A program made the position numbers and the translations under genes. 50,289 nucleotides of DNA, taken from positions 3,241 through 53,529 of the forward strand of contig DEIQ01000069.1 of the NCBI GenBank assembly GCA_002352565.1, given 5' to 3'. The notes under the pieces are model-generated. The model made no database searches, was not told the origin of the DNA, and saw only the letters and a list, made by a program, of their open reading frames with translations. The first letter of the stretch is position 1, and each line of letters opens with the position of its first letter. Source of the stretch: Proteobacteria bacterium UBA2770. Its GTDB lineage: Bacteria > Pseudomonadota > Gammaproteobacteria > UBA2770. This document shows, piece after piece, positions 1 to 13,025 of this stretch.

Positions 1-52
1 GCGCGCAGCGCGTCTGGCCTATCGACCGAGATAACCCGCCCGCCAACGAGCT

Positions 53-140
53 GGCTACCAACTTCGAGCGTGGCACAGACTTGAATCTACTTCAAGAAAA
101 CGCACGTGCTCGCGGGTCGGTGTTGATTGATTTGTTAGGC
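53..140 (-). repeat. attC-like recombination-site candidate downstream of the SDR ORF (degenerate R' end)
   Basis: On the minus strand it starts with GCCTAAC (rc of 134-140, fits RYYYAAC) 2 nt after the SDR stop. Its 5' half GCCTAACAAATCAATCAACACCG aligns with the 5' half of the 936-1076 element. Its 3' half CTGTGCC..GAAGTTGGTAGCC aligns with CTGTGCC..GAACTTGGCGTTAGGC of that element, but the R' box is degenerate. The lower boundary is uncertain. Confidence 0.35.
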
Positions 141-142
141 GT

Positions 143-910
143 TCAGTTTGTTGTCAATCCACCATCAACGGCCAAAATTGCTCCTGTAATCCAACGTGCT
201 TGATCAGATGCAAGAAATACCGTTGCACCCGAAATATCATCGGGTTCGCCGATTCGGCCAAGTGGATAGATAGTTCCAATCATTTCATCGAATTTTGTTT
301 TTCCCTCATCAGTAAGTCTGTTGATATTAGCTTGAACTAACGGGGTATTTACTGTTCCGGGAGCAATTGCATTTACCCGCACGCCCCGTTGGCCTGCCTC
401 ATAGGCGAGGGACTTTGTGAAAGCATCCATTGCCCCTTTACTTAATGAATATGCCGTTGACGGTCTTCCTGGCAACATGCGGTGTGAGAAATAGGACGAA
501 ATGTTTATCACTGAACCTTTTCTGGCCGCAAGCGCATCGAACAGTTGTTGTGTTAGAATGTAAGGTGCTTTTACATTTAGGTTCAGATGTAAATCCAATT
601 CTTCTTCGTTGGTTTCCGTGAATGGGTTAAATCGTGCAATGCCAGCATTGTTTACTAACACATCAACTTCCGGCCATATATTGAGAATATCTTGAGTAGT
701 TTTATTAATAGTCGAGATATTTGATAGGTCTGCCGACAACACATGAACCTCGACATCAAATTGTGAAAGAGTTGCGGCTGATTTTTTGAGGTTCTCTTCA
801 TCTCTGGCTATAAGAAAAACACTGGCATTATTTTTTGCAAATGCCTTGGCAATTCCAAAACCAATGCCATCGGTGCCGCCTGTTATGATTGTTCGTTTGT
901 TTGATAACAT
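143..910 (-). CDS. short-chain dehydrogenase/reductase (classical SDR)
   Basis: 255-aa ORF with an ATG start and a GGAGAG SD 5 nt upstream. Has the TGGTDGIGFG cofactor motif, NNAG, and catalytic YSLSK. GC is clearly lower than in neighbouring core genes. Confidence 0.9.
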   Translation of the reverse strand: MLSNKRTIITGGTDGIGFGIAKAFAKNNASVFLIARDEENLKKSAATLSQFDVEVHVLSADLSNISTINKTTQDILNIWPEVDVLVNNAGIARFNPFTETNEEELDLHLNLNVKAPYILTQQLFDALAARKGSVINISSYFSHRMLPGRPSTAYSLSKGAMDAFTKSLAYEAGQRGVRVNAIAPGTVNTPLVQANINRLTDEGKTKFDEMIGTIYPLGRIGEPDDISGATVFLASDQARWITGAILAVDGGLTTN

Positions 911-935
911 TTATCTCTCCCTTTTATTTTTCTCT

Positions 936-1076
936 GCCTAACGCCAAGTTCAACGGCACAGTGAGCGATGATGCTTTTGTGATAAAATTTGCATAGCAAA
1001 TTCACAAAAGGAGCAGCGCTTGCTGTGTCCAGTGGAGGCCCAACGGGCCGTAACGGGTTGCAACGTCTTGTTATAC
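936..1076 (-). repeat. attC-like structured spacer between the two cassette-like ORFs
   Basis: The minus strand reads GTATAAC (rc 1070-1076) ... GTTAGGC (rc 936-942). The outer arms pair imperfectly with bulges (AAC/GTT, AAG/CTT, TTGCAAC/GTTGAA, CGGC/GCCG). The centre has a perfect nested hairpin, CTTTTGTGA-ATTTGC-TAT-GCAAAT-..-TCACAAAAG. GTTAGGC fits GTTRRRY and lies 25 nt upstream of the SDR ATG. Confidence 0.45.
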
Positions 1077-1092
1077 GCAATTATCATTTTAG

Positions 1093-1338
1093 TTAAGCCA
1101 TAATTTTTAGAGCACAATATGGTACTAGATTGAAAATAAATATGCCAAATTTGTAATTACCGAGAAAATTGAAATACAACTCATCAAGCTTATCGGGCGA
1201 AATATGTACCATCTTCGCATGCAGTTTTTTTACTGGTGCATTAAATATAATTATCATTATAGAGGTGTATGTAAGCATCCCTATATTGATTATTGTGCAC
1301 CAACCAAGAAAAGTAGTAATCGTAGATAAATTTTCCAT
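1093..1338 (-). CDS. small hypothetical membrane protein (two predicted hydrophobic helices)
   Basis: 81-aa ORF with an ATG start and AGGA 4 nt upstream. It has two hydrophobic stretches (ITTFLGWCTIINIGMLTYTSIMIIIF and FGIFIFNLVPYCALKI). It is very AT-rich and I recognise no family. Confidence 0.5.
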   Translation of the reverse strand: MENLSTITTFLGWCTIINIGMLTYTSIMIIIFNAPVKKLHAKMVHISPDKLDELYFNFLGNYKFGIFIFNLVPYCALKIMA

Positions 1339-1381
1339 ATTCCTATTCCCTGATTATTTTATTTGTATAACAGTGAACTAG

Positions 1382-1442
1382 ACAGAAACCTCTATTAATT
1401 TACTATACGGATGCTGCCTGGTAAGTTAATAGAGGTTTCTGT
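1382..1442. repeat. perfect 17-bp inverted repeat (hairpin) between the radA stop and the first cassette-like ORF
   Basis: ACAGAAACCTCTATTAA (1382-1398) and TTAATAGAGGTTTCTGT (1426-1442) are exact reverse complements separated by 27 nt. There is no T-run on either side, so it is not a canonical intrinsic terminator. Confidence 0.8.
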
Positions 1443-1510
1443 TCCAAGGAATCGATCTCTTCCGGCGGGCATCCACCATTCAAATCCAGGAAATTCGGAT
1501 CAGCGCTCGC

Positions 1511-2887
1511 TCAGGCGAGATCAGCGCTGGTAAGCGCTTCTTGCAAATCGGTGACCACATGCAATTGCATGCCTTCGATCCCTTGGCGGGGCGCGTTCCC
1601 TTTGGGGACAATGGCCCGGGTAAAACCGTGCTGCGCTGCTTCCATCAAACGCAGCTCTCCATTGGGTACGGGACGAACTTCACCACTCAGACCCACTTCA
1701 CCAAAAACCGCCAGACTGCGATCCACCGGGCGGTTTTTAAGGCTTGAAGTGACGGCCAGCAACATGGGTAGATCGGTGCTCGTTTCAGTGACCCGCATGC
1801 CACCGACCACGTTAATAAATACATCAAGCCCGGCCGTTTGTACGCCGCCATGGCGATGCAAAACCGCCAGCAGCATCATAAGACGGGATGAGTCAATGCC
1901 CATGGATAATCGGCGCACCCCTGCAGAACCATTGGCAGTATCAGTCAAAGCCTGCACTTCGAGCAAAAGCGCCCGGGTTCCTTCCTGAATGCAGGCGATT
2001 ACGCTGCCGCTGGAATTTTTTTCCGAGCGGGAGAGAAACAGAGCAGATGGGTTGGTTATTTCCTTGAGCCCCTGTTCGGTCATCAGAAAAACCGCCAGTT
2101 CGTTGATCGTTCCAAAGCGGTTCTTAAAGGCGCGTACCATCCGAAAGCGGCTGCCAGCATCGCTTTCAAAATAGAGTACCGTATCCACCATATGTTCCAG
2201 AACCTTGGGGCCGGCAATATGTCCCTCTCGGGTGACATGCCCGATCAGCAACATGGTAATCCCTTGCTGCTTGGCGCAACGCACCAGCATCGCTGCGCAT
2301 TCCCGTACCTGCGACACTGTACCAGGCGCCGATGGCAATTGATCGCTATAAGCGCTCTGTATCGAATCGAGTACCACCAGAGCAGGCTTCTGCTGTTGAA
2401 TGACATGAAGAACCTGTTCCACGCAGGATTCGGTAAACAGCGAGATAGGCGCCTGATGGACGCCAAGCCGCCGCGCCCGCAGCGCTATTTGTTCCCTGGA
2501 TTCTTCGCCGGCGACATAAAGGCATTTCATCCCTTGCGCCAAAAAACCCACGAGTTGCAACAAAAGCGTAGACTTGCCAATCCCCGGCTCACCTCCGAGC
2601 AGGGTTACCGAGCCGGGAACCAGCCCGGAACCCAGAACCCGGTCCATCTCGGAACTACCGCAGCTAACCCGTTGAGGCGGCTGGCTACTGATGGCGGATA
2701 ACGCAACCACTTCAGATGATTGCCCGGCGTATCCCCCTGCAAGAATGGGTCTGGATGGATGCGCGACCGGTGGTGGGGCTTCGACTATGGCATCCCAGCT
2801 TTTGCATTCGGGGCATTGCCCCGCCCAGCGCGGCATAAAAACACCACAATTCTGGCAAACATAACCAGTTTTATGCGAACGCGCCAT
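1511..2887 (-). CDS. radA: DNA repair protein RadA (Sms)
   Basis: 458 aa. N-terminal zinc finger CQNCG..CPEC, Walker A GEPGIGKST, the KNRFG RadA motif, and a Lon-like C-terminal domain. Confidence 0.95.
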   Translation of the reverse strand: MARSHKTGYVCQNCGVFMPRWAGQCPECKSWDAIVEAPPPVAHPSRPILAGGYAGQSSEVVALSAISSQPPQRVSCGSSEMDRVLGSGLVPGSVTLLGGEPGIGKSTLLLQLVGFLAQGMKCLYVAGEESREQIALRARRLGVHQAPISLFTESCVEQVLHVIQQQKPALVVLDSIQSAYSDQLPSAPGTVSQVRECAAMLVRCAKQQGITMLLIGHVTREGHIAGPKVLEHMVDTVLYFESDAGSRFRMVRAFKNRFGTINELAVFLMTEQGLKEITNPSALFLSRSEKNSSGSVIACIQEGTRALLLEVQALTDTANGSAGVRRLSMGIDSSRLMMLLAVLHRHGGVQTAGLDVFINVVGGMRVTETSTDLPMLLAVTSSLKNRPVDRSLAVFGEVGLSGEVRPVPNGELRLMEAAQHGFTRAIVPKGNAPRQGIEGMQLHVVTDLQEALTSADLA

Positions 2888-4001: not shown

Positions 4002-5386
4002 ATGGGGATCAAATCAATGACGCTGCTCGAATCGGCCAAATGATTATCAAAACGGGTAAATTCACCCCTAAATGTCACTCTACAGGTACCAGTAGGACCA
4101 TTGCGATGTTTACCTATGATGATTTCCGCGATGCCCTTATCCGGACTATCTTCATTATAAACTTCATCGCGATAGATGAAGATCACCAGATCGGCATCCT
4201 GCTCAATACTACCCGATTCCCTCAGATCCGACATAACAGGGCGTTTGCTGGGTCGTTGCTCAAGATTTCGGTTGAGCTGGGACAAGGCGATAACAGGAAT
4301 CTTCAGTTCCTTGGCCAGCGCCTTGAGATTGCGTGAAATCTCGGATATTTCGTTAACCCGATTTTCTTTGGCATTACCGGACTGCATGAGTTGCAAATAA
4401 TCGATCACTAGCAGACCTATGTTCTGTTCGCGTTTCATGCGCCTTGCTCGCGCCCGCAGTTCCGTAGACGTTAAACCCGGACTATCGTCAATAAAAAGGC
4501 AGGCTTCACTGATCATGGGAACCGCAGACGTAATACGGGCCCAATCCTCATCCTCAAGAGAACCCGTGCGCAACCGACTCTGATTGATCCGCCCAAACGC
4601 TGCCACCATGCGCATGGCAAGTTGTTCACCTGGCATTTCCATGCTGAAGATACCAGTCGGAATATGCGCATTCAATGCAGCATGCTCGGCAATATTCATG
4701 GCGAGACTGGTTTTTCCCATGGACGGCCGACCGGCGAGAATAATCAAATCACCGGACTGCAATCCTGCGGTCATATGATCCAGATCGGTTAATCCGGTCG
4801 CCACGCCGGTAATATGTCCTTTATTTTGGTAAAGCTCATGCACGCGGGGCATGACCGCATCCATCAATTGCTTCATGGATGCATATTCGCGTTGATTACG
4901 CCCCCCCTGCTCAGCAATAGCAAAAATCTGCTGCTCACTCCAGTCCAGAAGCTGATCAACCGACGGATGACGAACCTGAAAAGCCGCTTCAGCGATTTGG
5001 TTGGCGCTTTGTATCAACTGGCGCAGAACGGAACGTTCACGCACAATACCGGCGTACGCTCCCACATTGATAACAACGGGTGTATTTTTACTGAGCATGG
5101 CACAATAGCTGAATGCCTCCGAACCCTCCATCAGTCCTTTGCTACCAAGCCACTCGCTGACGGTGATAATATCGACCGCCACACCATCCAGGCAAAGTGC
5201 CTGGATGGCGCGAAAAATGAGACCATGATCACGCTGATAAAAATCAGACTCAACCAGTATTGCTTCCAGAACTTCCCATCGGCCGTTGTCCAGAAGTACC
5301 GCGCCGAGAACCGCCTGTTCGGCTTCCACAGAATGGGGCGGAATGCGACCTCCATCCTGATCTTCGCTCAAAGCCAGCGAAGCCAT
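3998..5386 (-). CDS. dnaB: replicative DNA helicase DnaB
   Basis: IPPHSVEAEQAVLG N-terminal motif, Walker A GRPSMGKTS, and RecA-like C-terminal domain. The ORF track starts at a TTG (5389). The ATG one codon downstream (5386) is preferred. Confidence 0.95.
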   Translation of the reverse strand: MASLALSEDQDGGRIPPHSVEAEQAVLGAVLLDNGRWEVLEAILVESDFYQRDHGLIFRAIQALCLDGVAVDIITVSEWLGSKGLMEGSEAFSYCAMLSKNTPVVINVGAYAGIVRERSVLRQLIQSANQIAEAAFQVRHPSVDQLLDWSEQQIFAIAEQGGRNQREYASMKQLMDAVMPRVHELYQNKGHITGVATGLTDLDHMTAGLQSGDLIILAGRPSMGKTSLAMNIAEHAALNAHIPTGIFSMEMPGEQLAMRMVAAFGRINQSRLRTGSLEDEDWARITSAVPMISEACLFIDDSPGLTSTELRARARRMKREQNIGLLVIDYLQLMQSGNAKENRVNEISEISRNLKALAKELKIPVIALSQLNRNLEQRPSKRPVMSDLRESGSIEQDADLVIFIYRDEVYNEDSPDKGIAEIIIGKHRNGPTGTCRVTFRGEFTRFDNHLADSSSVIDLIPI

Positions 5387-6078: not shown

Positions 6079-7002
6079 TTATGATGTTCCGGATTCATTA
6101 CCGAGACGGGCTCGTATATCCGTCCAACTATCAATAACCGCCAATGCCGCCAGAAACAACCAGATAATCCCGATCAAGGGAAATAAAAAAATCATGCTCG
6201 CGTAACCCATGCCCATCCAAACCCATGGAATGCCTTTATATGCCGCCCATGCATGGATGATCGCCAAACCCTGGATAGCCAGCAGACCAACGAGCACCAT
6301 GGAGGTATTCCTCATGATTGCCATGCCGGTAATCATGGCAATCAGCACGCAACCCACCAGCACGGCACCGAATTGCCATCGGAAACCGATGGAAAGGAAT
6401 TCCCTGGAAAATGCACCGGGGCGAAACAATCTTGATTGCCAGAAACGCCCAAGAATCAACCCGCCGGCACTATGCAGCAGAATGATCGCACCTGTCAAAC
6501 CAGGCATATTCGGCGCAAGCATGGTAGTCATTTCATCGAGGGACCACCCCGCCTGATCGCCAAGCGTCTCATACTCCGAACGATCCAGCAACTTTTTGAG
6601 CCAGACTTCCCATTGCCCGACCGGATCGTCCATCAACCCATAAAAGCTCATACAGACGGCAATTGCAATCAAAGCCAAAACCTGCAAACCGGATTCCATC
6701 CTGCCGCTATTGTGAACGATCCACCCCGTCGCGCCTTCCATGATCATATAACCCACCCACACCATGGAAACCCAAAACAGCATGGAGTCTTGGGCGAAAA
6801 AAGAGAACGCGGCAATACAAATACCGGAAACAATGATTAAACGGAACACCGCCGCCGCGCCATATTGCATGGCGAGCATAGCGATAATCGCCCCTCCGGG
6901 AATATTCATCAGGGGAATAACCAGGGACGCATAAAACAGAATAATCAGCAACAGCACAGTCGGCCAAAAACCACTGTTTGCCCAGCGCGCCAGAAACACC
7001 AT
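6079..7002 (-). CDS. multi-pass inner-membrane protein conserved between rpsR and rplI
   Basis: 307 aa, hydrophobic throughout (about 8 helices), ATG start. A membrane ORF at this position in the rpsF-rpsR-rplI operon is typical of several Gammaproteobacteria (from memory of Pseudomonas gene order). Confidence 0.7.
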   Translation of the reverse strand: MVFLARWANSGFWPTVLLLIILFYASLVIPLMNIPGGAIIAMLAMQYGAAAVFRLIIVSGICIAAFSFFAQDSMLFWVSMVWVGYMIMEGATGWIVHNSGRMESGLQVLALIAIAVCMSFYGLMDDPVGQWEVWLKKLLDRSEYETLGDQAGWSLDEMTTMLAPNMPGLTGAIILLHSAGGLILGRFWQSRLFRPGAFSREFLSIGFRWQFGAVLVGCVLIAMITGMAIMRNTSMVLVGLLAIQGLAIIHAWAAYKGIPWVWMGMGYASMIFLFPLIGIIWLFLAALAVIDSWTDIRARLGNESGTS

Positions 7003-11210: not shown

Positions 11211-13025
11211 CTACCACGGACTGGCGCTGTCCTCCATGGCAGCGTCCGACTTCATCGCCTGGTGACGAAATTTCAGGCGCAGCAGTTCATTAGGCTGATC
11301 CTTGATCATATTTAGCCATTGCGCCCGACCAATGGAGCTATTCCCTGCCCGCTCCGAACCTTGAGCAAAAATCGCCATTGATGACCGGATTTCCTCGTTA
11401 TTAGCCTGTTGTTCCAAAGATGATGCGCCATCATCTTCCCTGCTCGTGGATTCCCCGGATTGTTTTTGTTGCGCCAGCATGCCATTGTTTTGTGCTTCCA
11501 GACCGTCCTGGCTCTGCGACGGCTCCCCATTCGTTTCATCCCCGGCACCTTGAACCCGTTGGGCCGAATTGCCAAACGGGCTCCCGGAACCGGATTGCGA
11601 ATCAGGCGCTTGATTTTTATCTTTGAGCATCCGGACTTCCCGTAAATAATTCTGCAGCAGCGAACGATTGTAGCGGGCATCTTCAAATGTCACATCGTGA
11701 TCAAGACATGAGGTGTAAGCCGAGATAGCCGCCTCCATCTGCCCCTGTTGAGCCAGAGCATTGCCGCAATGATAAAAGTCCCGGGCGCCTGGCATGGCGC
11801 AGTAGATTTTCGCCGCCTGATCAAAATGCCCGGCGCGATACAGACTCGCGGCCTTCCATTGAAGATCATCAAACAGGGTGGCGGCTTCCTGGCTCCGATG
11901 TTCGGTATAAAGTTGGTAAGCGACATAATCCGGTTTGACCCACAGATCCTTCCAGCCAAAAGCCTGCGCATTTGGCACAGCCAAACCGTTCATCTGCAAA
12001 AATACAACGGCAATCATAGCACCAAGCCAACCACGACGAAATCCCAGAGCTGCCAGCGGCAGCAAGCCATAGACCAGCCACAGACCAAATTCCCGCCATT
12101 GATCGGTTTTCACTTCCCCCGAATCCTTCTTCCCGGTCGCAGATGCCCTGCCAGAGGCCACCAGAGACTGAAGATCGTGAAAATGCTCCTCATCAAGATG
12201 AATCATGGCGCCACCCCCTGCCGAAACCACCCGTCGCAAGAAACCAACATCGACCTCGGCGCTCACCAGTCTGCCGTCGGTATGACGGATAAAATCCGCG
12301 CCACCATTGATGGGAACCGGACCGCCGCGCACCGTGCCAACTGCGACGATAGAAAGCGGATACTGCATGGTTCTGCCTTTCTTCGCGGCGGTGATCAGCG
12401 CCTTTTGATCATGACTTCCATCAGTGATCAAGACTATCCGCCCTATCGTATGACCGCTTCCCTGAAGTAAAGACCAGGCCCGCTCCAGACCTTTTTCCGG
12501 GCGGCTGCCCTGAGCGGGCACCATCTCGGTATCCAGATGTTTTATGATATCGATCATCGTACTGAAATCGGTGGAAACCGGGGCTCCCATATAAGCATCT
12601 TCGGCAAACAGCACCAGCCCTATATTCCTTTCACCGGACTGACTTAAATAATCCAGCAATTGTTTTTTCACCCGTTCCAGTCTGGAGGGCAACACATCCG
12701 TCACATCCATGGAGCGGGACAGGTCCACCACCAGCATCAGGGCGGAATCACTGCGCATGGCGGGCACTGGCAATTTCTGCCACACCGGACCTGCCAGTGC
12801 TATCACCCCCAATATCCAGCCCAGCGCCAGCAACAGCAAACCGCCATGGCTTTGCCTGCCTCTTTGGCCGGTGAGCAGCCAAGGCAGCAGATGCCGATCC
12901 ACATGGCGGCGCCAAAAATTGCTCTGCCGATGCTGAAAGACCAGCATCGAAACAATCAGAAAAACCGGTATCAGCGCCAAAAACCAGTATGGTCTCAGAA
13001 AATGAAATTCGGCAGGAAAAGTCAT
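11211..13025 (-). CDS. VWA domain plus TPR protein (BatB/BatC-like fusion) with a Q/S/E-rich tail
   Basis: 604 aa. N-terminal TM helices, a VWA MIDAS motif (VVDLSRSM), TPR-like repeats (YRAGHFDQAAKIY, GNALAQQGQMEAAISAY), and low-complexity acidic/Gln-rich C-terminal third. The start overlaps the upstream stop (ATGA). Confidence 0.8.
   Translation of the reverse strand: MTFPAEFHFLRPYWFLALIPVFLIVSMLVFQHRQSNFWRRHVDRHLLPWLLTGQRGRQSHGGLLLLALGWILGVIALAGPVWQKLPVPAMRSDSALMLVVDLSRSMDVTDVLPSRLERVKKQLLDYLSQSGERNIGLVLFAEDAYMGAPVSTDFSTMIDIIKHLDTEMVPAQGSRPEKGLERAWSLLQGSGHTIGRIVLITDGSHDQKALITAAKKGRTMQYPLSIVAVGTVRGGPVPINGGADFIRHTDGRLVSAEVDVGFLRRVVSAGGGAMIHLDEEHFHDLQSLVASGRASATGKKDSGEVKTDQWREFGLWLVYGLLPLAALGFRRGWLGAMIAVVFLQMNGLAVPNAQAFGWKDLWVKPDYVAYQLYTEHRSQEAATLFDDLQWKAASLYRAGHFDQAAKIYCAMPGARDFYHCGNALAQQGQMEAAISAYTSCLDHDVTFEDARYNRSLLQNYLREVRMLKDKNQAPDSQSGSGSPFGNSAQRVQGAGDETNGEPSQSQDGLEAQNNGMLAQQKQSGESTSREDDGASSLEQQANNEEIRSSMAIFAQGSERAGNSSIGRAQWLNMIKDQPNELLRLKFRHQAMKSDAAMEDSASPW

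Follow-up and report, generated by a model that had tools for sequence, protein, structure and literature searches.

A probable chromosomal integron cassette array with an attI-like site and no adjacent integrase behind radA in a gammaproteobacterial lineage

What are the two low-GC genes that follow radA in Proteobacteria bacterium UBA2770, and what placed them beside a core gene? We addressed this question in a stretch of 50,289 nucleotides (nt) of contig DEIQ01000069.1 (assembly GCA_002352565.1), hereafter the window, which at its start encodes on the minus strand a small 81-aa protein and a short-chain dehydrogenase/reductase (SDR). An original prediction, made from the letters alone, took both genes for integron gene cassettes. 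[quoted passage not shown] This reading draws on attC sites, exact cassette boundaries, the same cassettes in other arrays, differing arrays behind radA, and an integrase elsewhere. Judged by sequence, the DUF6868 gene (the 81-aa open reading frame [ORF]) and the SDR gene are genuine mobile integron gene cassettes, an element of a kind already known. On the minus strand, the order is radA, a 75-nt tail, a palindrome overlapping the attI-like site, the DUF6868 cassette, the SDR cassette, and the start of an ORF-less cassette. The units of the array within the window are as follows (contigs other than the window are denoted by L and a number).

942 to 1370, minus strand: cassette 1 (TTATAC...G), comprising the DUF6868 ORF (1338-1093) and its own attC
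936 to 1076, minus strand: attC of cassette 1 (attC1), 141 nt, from model match and fold
23 to 941, minus strand: cassette 2 (TTAGGC...G), comprising the SDR ORF (910-143) and its own attC
17 to 140, minus strand: attC of cassette 2 (attC2), 124 nt, from model match
1 to 22, minus strand: start of cassette 3, ORF-less (ATAGGCCAGACGCGC...), cut by the window edge and continued in L007, L001, and L005

The 81-aa ORF belongs to DUF6868 (Pfam, 2.6e-19), and the 255-aa ORF is a classical SDR (adh_short_C2, 1.2e-58). The original prediction had described two low-GC ORFs bracketed by four 7-mers, each with a Shine-Dalgarno (SD) sequence and a nearby ATG. The 7-mers are indeed found on the minus strand (GTTATAC at 1371-1365, GTATAAC at 1076-1070, GTTAGGC at 942-936, and GCCTAAC at 140-134), and the ATG of each ORF lies 25 to 26 nt past its box, preceded by an SD-like purine run. 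The prediction had also relied on the rule that the first six bases of a cassette complement its own R'' box; TTATAC and TTAGGC do so exactly, and the limits that follow from the rule match the boundaries obtained by comparison with other arrays.

In both attC sites, the R'' and R' boxes complement each other in inverted orientation, the crossover follows the G of R' (G↓TT or G↓AT; the arrow marks the crossover point), and both have L''/L' repeats, ∼5-nt spacers to the R boxes, and an extrahelical base in L''. The attC1 layout is R'' GTATAAC, AAGAC, L'' GTT(G)CAAC, centre, L' GTTGAAC, TTGGC, and R' G↓TTAGGC. That of attC2 is R'' GCCTAAC, AAATC, L'' AAT(C)AAC, centre, L' GTTAT, CTCGGTC, and R' G↓ATAGGC, with the R' box GATAGGC at 23-17 and the crossover after G23; the second attC, which the prediction had let reach only to 53, runs from 140 to 17. 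Two boxes depart from RYYYAAC/GTTRRRY: GTATAAC at one position and GATAGGC by an A for T at position 2. Both layouts resemble the blaVIM-2 and aadB attC sites, and L'' of attC1 is like that of the blaVIM-2 attC. The hairpin predicted in the 141-nt spacer is a strong one, at −33.9 kcal/mol (z = −5.4) for the bottom strand and −26.6 kcal/mol (z = −3.35) for the top strand, with its extrahelical base in L''.

As evidence, the 7-mer pairs on which the original prediction leaned are weak by themselves, and statistically they are not compelling. Inverted GTTNNNN pairs 200 to 1,000 nt apart number 56 per strand in the window versus ∼34 in shuffled sequence, with four in positions 1 to 1500; strict GTTRRRY pairs occur only three times in 50 kb, one of them being 942/134. 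As the 7-mer pairs alone do not exceed chance, the case rests on two independent tests, one with an attC model and one comparative.

For the model test, we used a covariance model made from 15 classical class 1 attC sites, in which the R''/R' and L''/L' boxes were paired canonically and a single base was extrahelical, as a stand-in for IntegronFinder's attC model. The training sites (those of blaVIM-2, aac(6')-Ib, dfrA14, dfrA12, arr-3, dfrA27, aadB, blaGES-5, dfrA5, dfrA15, estX, psp, aadA2, cmlA1, and gcuF) came from 11 arrays of plasmid class 1 integrons, located with the integrase of this population (described below) as a protein query. Both strands of the 50,289 bases were searched at E ≤ 10. 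Two matches only were returned in the whole window, 1076-936 (minus strand; 18.1 bits; E = 0.031; full length, 1-79) and 140-17 (minus strand; 15.6 bits; E = 0.13; full length), starting on the cassette strand 16 nt (attC1) and 2 nt (attC2) past the ORF stop codons. In related arrays, the model marked 20 sites behind cassette ORFs. IntegronFinder retains attC matches at E < 1, and a CALIN is defined by two or more sites (PMC4889954).

The attC check proposed with the original prediction thus singles out these two sites in 50 kb, and the integrase-less attC cluster that it described is borne out by two sites 796 nt apart on the minus strand, within 4 kb, with no IntI in the window. A generic repeat, the other possibility it had raised, is not seen: self-BLAST found no other copies of the 141-nt spacer within the window. 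Its count of two cassettes is right in that both are real and falls short in that a third, ORF-less cassette begins at 22, with more attC sites beyond the window edge; on that side, the contig was followed for only ∼350 nt past the window start.

For the comparative test, contigs were found via exact-protein look-ups of both ORFs and then compared with the window by BLAST. The window cassettes recur in other arrays at 97.5 to 100% identity, and the similarity always ends at G↓TT or G↓AT. L008, L009, and L011 resemble the window only over 1371-935, the DUF6868 unit (99.8 to 100% identity), and L002 and L003 resemble it only over 945-20, the SDR unit (99.8% identity). The DUF6868 cassette has four left neighbors, namely, the attI-like site behind radA, the attI beside intI (in L010, where it is the first cassette), and two attC ends (L008/L009 and L011); its right neighbors are of three different kinds, and every join falls at G↓TT. 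The SDR cassette is third behind the IntI gene in L002/L003, after ABM and tautomerase cassettes, and its right junction reads ...CTCGGTCG↓ATAGGC in the window versus ...CTCGGTCG↓TTATAC in L002. The ORF-less unit, too, changes place: in L175 and L092 it takes first position at attI, and it also comes after the SDR and ABM cassettes (the latter in L092).

The SDR cassette occupies four contexts, including a Campylobacterota integron. In Sulfurimonas hongkongensis (L176, AUPZ01000007.1; 5969-6806), it is 97.5% identical at the nucleotide level and stands first beside a split IntI pseudogene; the similarity begins exactly at window position 942 (G↓TTAGGC), and the attC centre differs. A literature search on Sulfurimonas integrons found nothing specific. 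At the sequence level, this 97.5% match is direct evidence for recent traffic of a cassette across phyla.

The array does not begin with a bare junction. The original prediction had proposed insertion at a secondary site; contrary to this, 1435-1371 is a homologue of the attI that lies beside intI at another locus, with 87% identity and the same crossover. The features on this side of the array are as follows.

1371 to 1435, minus strand: attI-like site, 64 nt, by homology to the attI beside intI
1382 to 1442, minus strand: palindrome with 21-bp arms (CAGAAACCTCTATTAACTTAC - 17 nt - GTAAATTAATAGAGGTTTCTG), from a self inverted match, overlapping the attI-like site
1402 to 1429, minus strand: promoter-like match (weak evidence), TTAACT-16-TATAGT, facing the cassettes

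Window positions 1435-1361 are 87% identical over 75 nt to L002 1202-1276, located between intI and the first cassette. The attI-like site consists of a distal box ACCAGG, a 34-nt spacer, and a proximal box TCTAGTTCACTG, with the crossover after G1371. The proximal box and crossover, TCTAGTTCACTG↓, are identical in the attI and the attI-like site and are followed in the window by TTATAC; all copies of either kind end in GTCTAGTTCACTG↓. The crossover base is the same in six integrase-linked and radA-linked contexts, and the first cassette varies: DUF5946, ORF-less, DUF6868, or ABM at the integrase-linked attI and two different ones at the radA-linked site. Two relatives with IntI proteins of only 48 to 50% identity, L198 and L199, also show ACTAGA-N34-TCTA.T....TG↓TT; this family layout is derived from three lineages only. 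We also considered the junction as a complete attC and rejected this: the integrase-linked copies have no R''-type box at the right distance, and the layout is that of related attI sites.

The palindrome pairs at 20 of 21 positions in the window, at 19 of 21 in L092, and at 15 to 16 of 21 in the integrase-linked copies, and at two arm positions the radA-linked and integrase-linked versions differ by compensatory double changes. Its fold z-scores are −6.7 and −7.1. Local attI copies (L174, L175, L002, L010, and L092) carry a palindrome with arms of 15 to 21 bp, and the L092-type copies of the attI-like site are hybrids in which a radA-type left arm and loop are joined to an integrase-type right arm. 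A LexA box was considered for the palindrome and dismissed, as no CTG-N10-CAG-type motif is in register. Near the start of intI in L176 (5729-5776), there is another palindrome, ATTTTGTAAGTTA-N18-TAACTTACAAAAT, using the TAACTTAC/GTAAGTTA words that are also used by the arms of the gammaproteobacterial attI palindrome.

The promoter-like match agrees with the consensus at 9 of 12 positions, where the region has nine such matches versus 3.6 expected; its −10 hexamer, TATAGT, lies within a stretch conserved between the attI and the attI-like site. It may be regarded as a weak candidate for a cassette promoter that does not depend on intI. Between radA and the cassettes, no terminator-like site was seen, which makes read-through possible. 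Transcription of the cassettes would start from the promoter-like element, come from radA read-through, or both.

Does the array vary between close relatives? Among genome representatives scanned with radA, the best match was only 57% identical, which precludes a strain-level comparison among them. The comparison was possible with metagenomic contigs: the RadA protein is 100% identical in L092 and L190 to L194. Over 4.6 kb of core DNA, L092 agrees with the window at 99.0% identity, and it has the same radA junction and a different array. Behind radA, L092 carries an ORF-less cassette followed by GNAT, DUF2938, FMN_bind_2, methyltransferase, and ABM cassettes and again an ORF-less one; its ABM cassette is the first cassette of L002. 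L191 is identical to L092 through the DUF2938 cassette and then departs at G↓TT, from the third cassette onward. At least three arrays are thus found behind radA in near-identical backgrounds. The original prediction had named, as a finding that would speak against it, close relatives with the same two ORFs at this site and no core-box boundaries; what is seen is the opposite, different cassettes behind radA in 99%-identical cores. The radA-attI-like site-DUF6868-SDR arrangement itself is 100% identical in L001, L007, L004, and L006, which are independent JGI, ENA, and Logan assemblies. An exact 24-mer of the attI-like junction had 0 matches in the JGI metagenome contigs, a collection that evidently does not hold the contigs found by protein look-up.

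The population's integrase gene lies at another locus, which adjoins Polysacc_synt-HSP20-DUF4397-DsbH and has an attI homologous to the attI-like site behind radA. The gene is intact (461 aa) in L174/L175 (L174 960-2345). It is split into 108 and 316 aa in L172, L173, L196, and L197, where the attI is cut right after ACTAGA; it has an in-frame TGA in L002 (a contig of 3.8× coverage), and in L008/L009 only its last 193 nt are left, in fusion with the end of an attC and with the DUF6868 cassette. Across samples, the Polysacc_synt locus presents a decay series of the integrase gene. The recombinase of L002 is an N-extended IntI interrupted by the in-frame TGA.

Against TIGR02249 (cut-off, 265), the 461-aa form (P0123) scores 414.8 bits and the 316-aa form (P0001) scores 406.1 bits. 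P0001 is 50% identical to IntI1, and the IntI-specific patch is present in both the intact and the 316-aa forms. By these sequence measures, the population's integrases are bona fide IntI. Complete integrons (intI, attI, and attC) are found at this other locus in L174, L175, L010, and L002; the radA locus does not qualify as one. The associated IntI proteins are N-terminally extended (∼455 to 470 aa), and several sources name members of this family integron integrase. Their ∼140-aa N-terminal extension resembles a second SAM-like N-terminal domain, and thousands of such proteins are present in databases. Contigs of the radA locus and of the intI locus occur together in seven samples.

In the mechanism that we propose, each unit consists of a promoter-less ORF followed by an attC, whose folded bottom strand would serve as the IntI substrate. 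IntI cuts between G and TT, with excision by attC × attC and insertion by attI × attC recombination. Structure, limits, and distribution show the DUF6868 and SDR cassettes to be units of this kind, which circulate among arrays within and beyond this microbial community. We infer that the IntI of the Polysacc_synt locus acts in trans on the radA array and that both loci reside in one genome.

Several observations weigh against this picture. The 50-kb window encodes no integron integrase; tblastn with IntI gave no match with an E value better than 6.9. Co-occurrence is the only link between the radA and intI loci, and the tetranucleotide correlation between them, 0.881, is below the range found inside the window (0.93 to 0.96) and barely above the highest value among 58 other genomes (0.873). 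In samples with the window-type array, the co-occurring intI is the split 108 + 316-aa form with the truncated attI. The attI-like site keeps the N34 spacer and proximal box of the family layout and differs from it at two of six positions in the distal box (ACCAGG, not ACTAGA); this altered box may impair the site. The E values of the covariance model are rough and individually modest. The minimum-free-energy fold of attC2 pairs the R and L boxes, and its energy is unremarkable (z = −1.1), with the two strands alike. The L092-type array could equally be the product of homologous exchange with the integrase-linked array, without action of IntI at the attI-like site; such an exchange is possible because its right arm and first cassette are common to the integrase-linked L175. 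Finally, all data come from metagenomic assemblies.

One rival explanation accepts the integron cassettes and disputes only present-day activity at the radA locus. Here, a rearrangement or duplication would have moved the attI and cassettes away from intI, leaving a stranded relic whose site is unused, and the differences between strains would come from homologous recombination or gene conversion with the integrase-linked array instead of from IntI at the attI-like site. We regard this as a serious possibility, if one with the odds somewhat against it. In L092, L191, and L192, the left arm and loop are of the radA type, the right arm is of the integrase type, and the first cassette is that of L175, a hybrid pattern that a crossover within the common loop would produce; the distal attI box has changed to ACCAGG; intI is decayed in several of the population's copies; and rearrangement and intI loss are listed as CALIN origins by Cury et al. 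(PMC4889954). On the other hand, the window-type right arm, with three private differences, joins DUF6868 20 nt away, and L010 joins an integrase-type arm to DUF6868. With both right-arm types joined to DUF6868, at least one of the joins must be due to a precise event at G↓TT or to a crossover in a span of 20 bp. The difference between L191 and L092 from the third cassette on also starts exactly at G↓TT, and an intact 461-aa IntI is present in the same sample set. A further possibility is that one integrase serves two docking sites, the orphan, diverged attI copy behind radA, with its own promoter-like element and a palindrome (21-bp arms) kept up by compensatory changes, acting as a second platform for capture and expression while the integrase remains at the Polysacc_synt locus. 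We hold this to be tentative and rather unlikely. If true, it would describe a naturally split, two-platform integron, and the long palindrome would hint at a structured or symmetric attI component, unlike classical double-stranded attI sites.

The remaining explanations dispute the nature or the reality of the junction. Insertion by an integrase at an attG-type site (GWT) behind radA, with no attI involved, is documented and is a proposed origin of small CALINs, and it would suit the lack of an adjacent integrase. We consider it very unlikely here: upstream of the first cassette, 64 nt match the attI beside intI at 87% identity, with the same crossover base and the family's N34 layout, and what a secondary-site insertion carries along is limited to sequence right of the crossover, so that it cannot bring attI-side sequence. 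An assembly chimera, in which the join of radA and the cassettes was made at sequence common to several arrays, might be suspected from contigs that repeatedly break inside the array and from the attI right part and cassettes that the loci have in common. It is extremely unlikely in view of the 100% identity of the radA-to-SDR arrangement across the independent assemblies and of the radA-specific left arm and window-specific right-arm variants, which lie 20 to 60 nt from the first cassette, within reach of single reads. That there are no integron cassettes at all, only chance 7-mers, terminator hairpins, or repetitive extragenic palindromic (REP)-type repeats between native genes, is a notion to which the commonness of GTTNNNN pairs (56 per strand) and the ordinary fold energy of attC2 lend something. 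Its probability is practically negligible: the only two attC-model matches in the window fall here, the spacer is unrepeated in the window, there is no terminator-like site, and the units recur with exact G↓TT limits, also beside integron integrases in two phyla.

How does the array compare with known systems? Published origins of CALINs are rearrangement, intI loss, and secondary-site insertion, and CALIN detection seeks attI only for classes 1 to 3 (PMC4889954, 2016). Like a CALIN, the radA array carries two or more attC sites that share a strand and lie within 4 kb, promoter-less ORFs with nonresistance functions, and no intI nearby, and an integrase-bearing integron co-occurs in the same community. 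Unlike CALINs as detected, it starts with a recognizable attI homologue, and it extends beyond the window. It shares with sedentary chromosomal integrons, e.g., the Vibrio cholerae superintegron, a chromosomal location, core-gene neighbors, accessory or unknown cassettes of lower GC content, strain-variable content, ORF-less cassettes, and IntI-family integrases. It differs from them in that intI and the cassette promoter Pc are not adjacent, in that the attC sites are heterogeneous and form no homogeneous repeat family, and in that the associated IntI belongs to the N-terminally extended (∼455- to 470-aa) group.

Class 1 integrons with a truncated or deleted intI1 keep attI1 and the cassettes, and intI1 remnants usually remain. 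The radA array likewise retains an attI and cassettes with no functional integrase beside it, and the IntI of another integron could serve it in trans; a truncated-intI version of this population's integron is present in L008/L009. Unlike in class 1, no intI remnant lies between radA and the attI-like site, which has diverged by 13% from the integrase-linked copy. Insertions at attG secondary sites, which have a GWT cleavage consensus and yield single attC sites lacking integron-integrases (SALIN) and small CALINs (Loot et al., bioRxiv 10.1101/2022.09.11.507474), also place cassettes outside a complete integron, and the G↓AT join of the ORF-less cassette fits GWT. However, the insertion point here is an attI homologue and no bare GWT site, and because attI-side sequence is present, the attG route does not fit the radA array.

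The known model of integron function is left unchanged by these findings. They document a chromosomal cassette array from a lineage of Gammaproteobacteria for which no close genome representative exists, and an integrase-less attI copy beside a core gene, with varying arrays, bears on the origin and continued activity of CALINs. They also indicate that a reading of raw sequence by the cassette rule can correctly spot integron cassettes, and the ORF-less cassette with a G↓AT core in place of G↓TT is a detail useful to integron biologists.

The flank of the array is of core character. One further feature, which gives context and lies outside the element, is the following.

1511 to 2887, minus strand: radA, the core gene flanking the array

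This 458-aa ORF (2887-1511) has Zn-ribbon, AAA_25, ChlI, and Lon_C domains, and the upstream side of the array is made up of radA, alr, and dnaB. GC content is 32 to 45% over the cassettes versus 53 to 60% in radA/alr, and the mean is 41.5% for positions 1 to 1370 versus 52.1% for the core.

The ORF-less cassette starts G↓ATAGGC instead of G↓TT, with GCCTATC as the corresponding R'' box; its GAT agrees with GWT, the consensus that has been reported at insertion sites in genomes. It occurs at window 22-1, L007 11317-11503, L005 956-1333, L092 5387-5582 and 9147-9173, and in L175. A short version, in L172 (reverse complement, 11984-12093), starts canonically with G↓TTAGGCCAG..., i.e., G↓TTAGGC, and the long version includes a partial inverted duplication of 60 nt, whose terminal inverted repeats measure 15 bp. 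In L005 (990-1333), two inverted copies of this cassette surround a truncated DUF5946 cassette start, an arrangement that may be either a real inversion or convergence point within an array or an assembly artefact at the repeat.

The attC of the DUF2938 cassette (L191 ∼5020-5097 and L092 6669-6746) has ends nearly identical to those of the arr-3 attC of L182; common to it and the clinical arr-3 attC are AACAARGCCATCAAA ... GCCGTTTATGGCGGCGTTA. This suggests a shared lineage of attC sites between an environmental array and a resistance cassette. At the junction of DUF2938 and FMN_bind_2 in L092 (∼6740-6750), the sequence reads GGCGGCA↓TTAGCT, with A in place of the conserved G, and L191 has at the same point a normal G↓TT and then another cassette. 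In L092, DUF2938 and FMN_bind_2 are probably fused and can no longer be separated.

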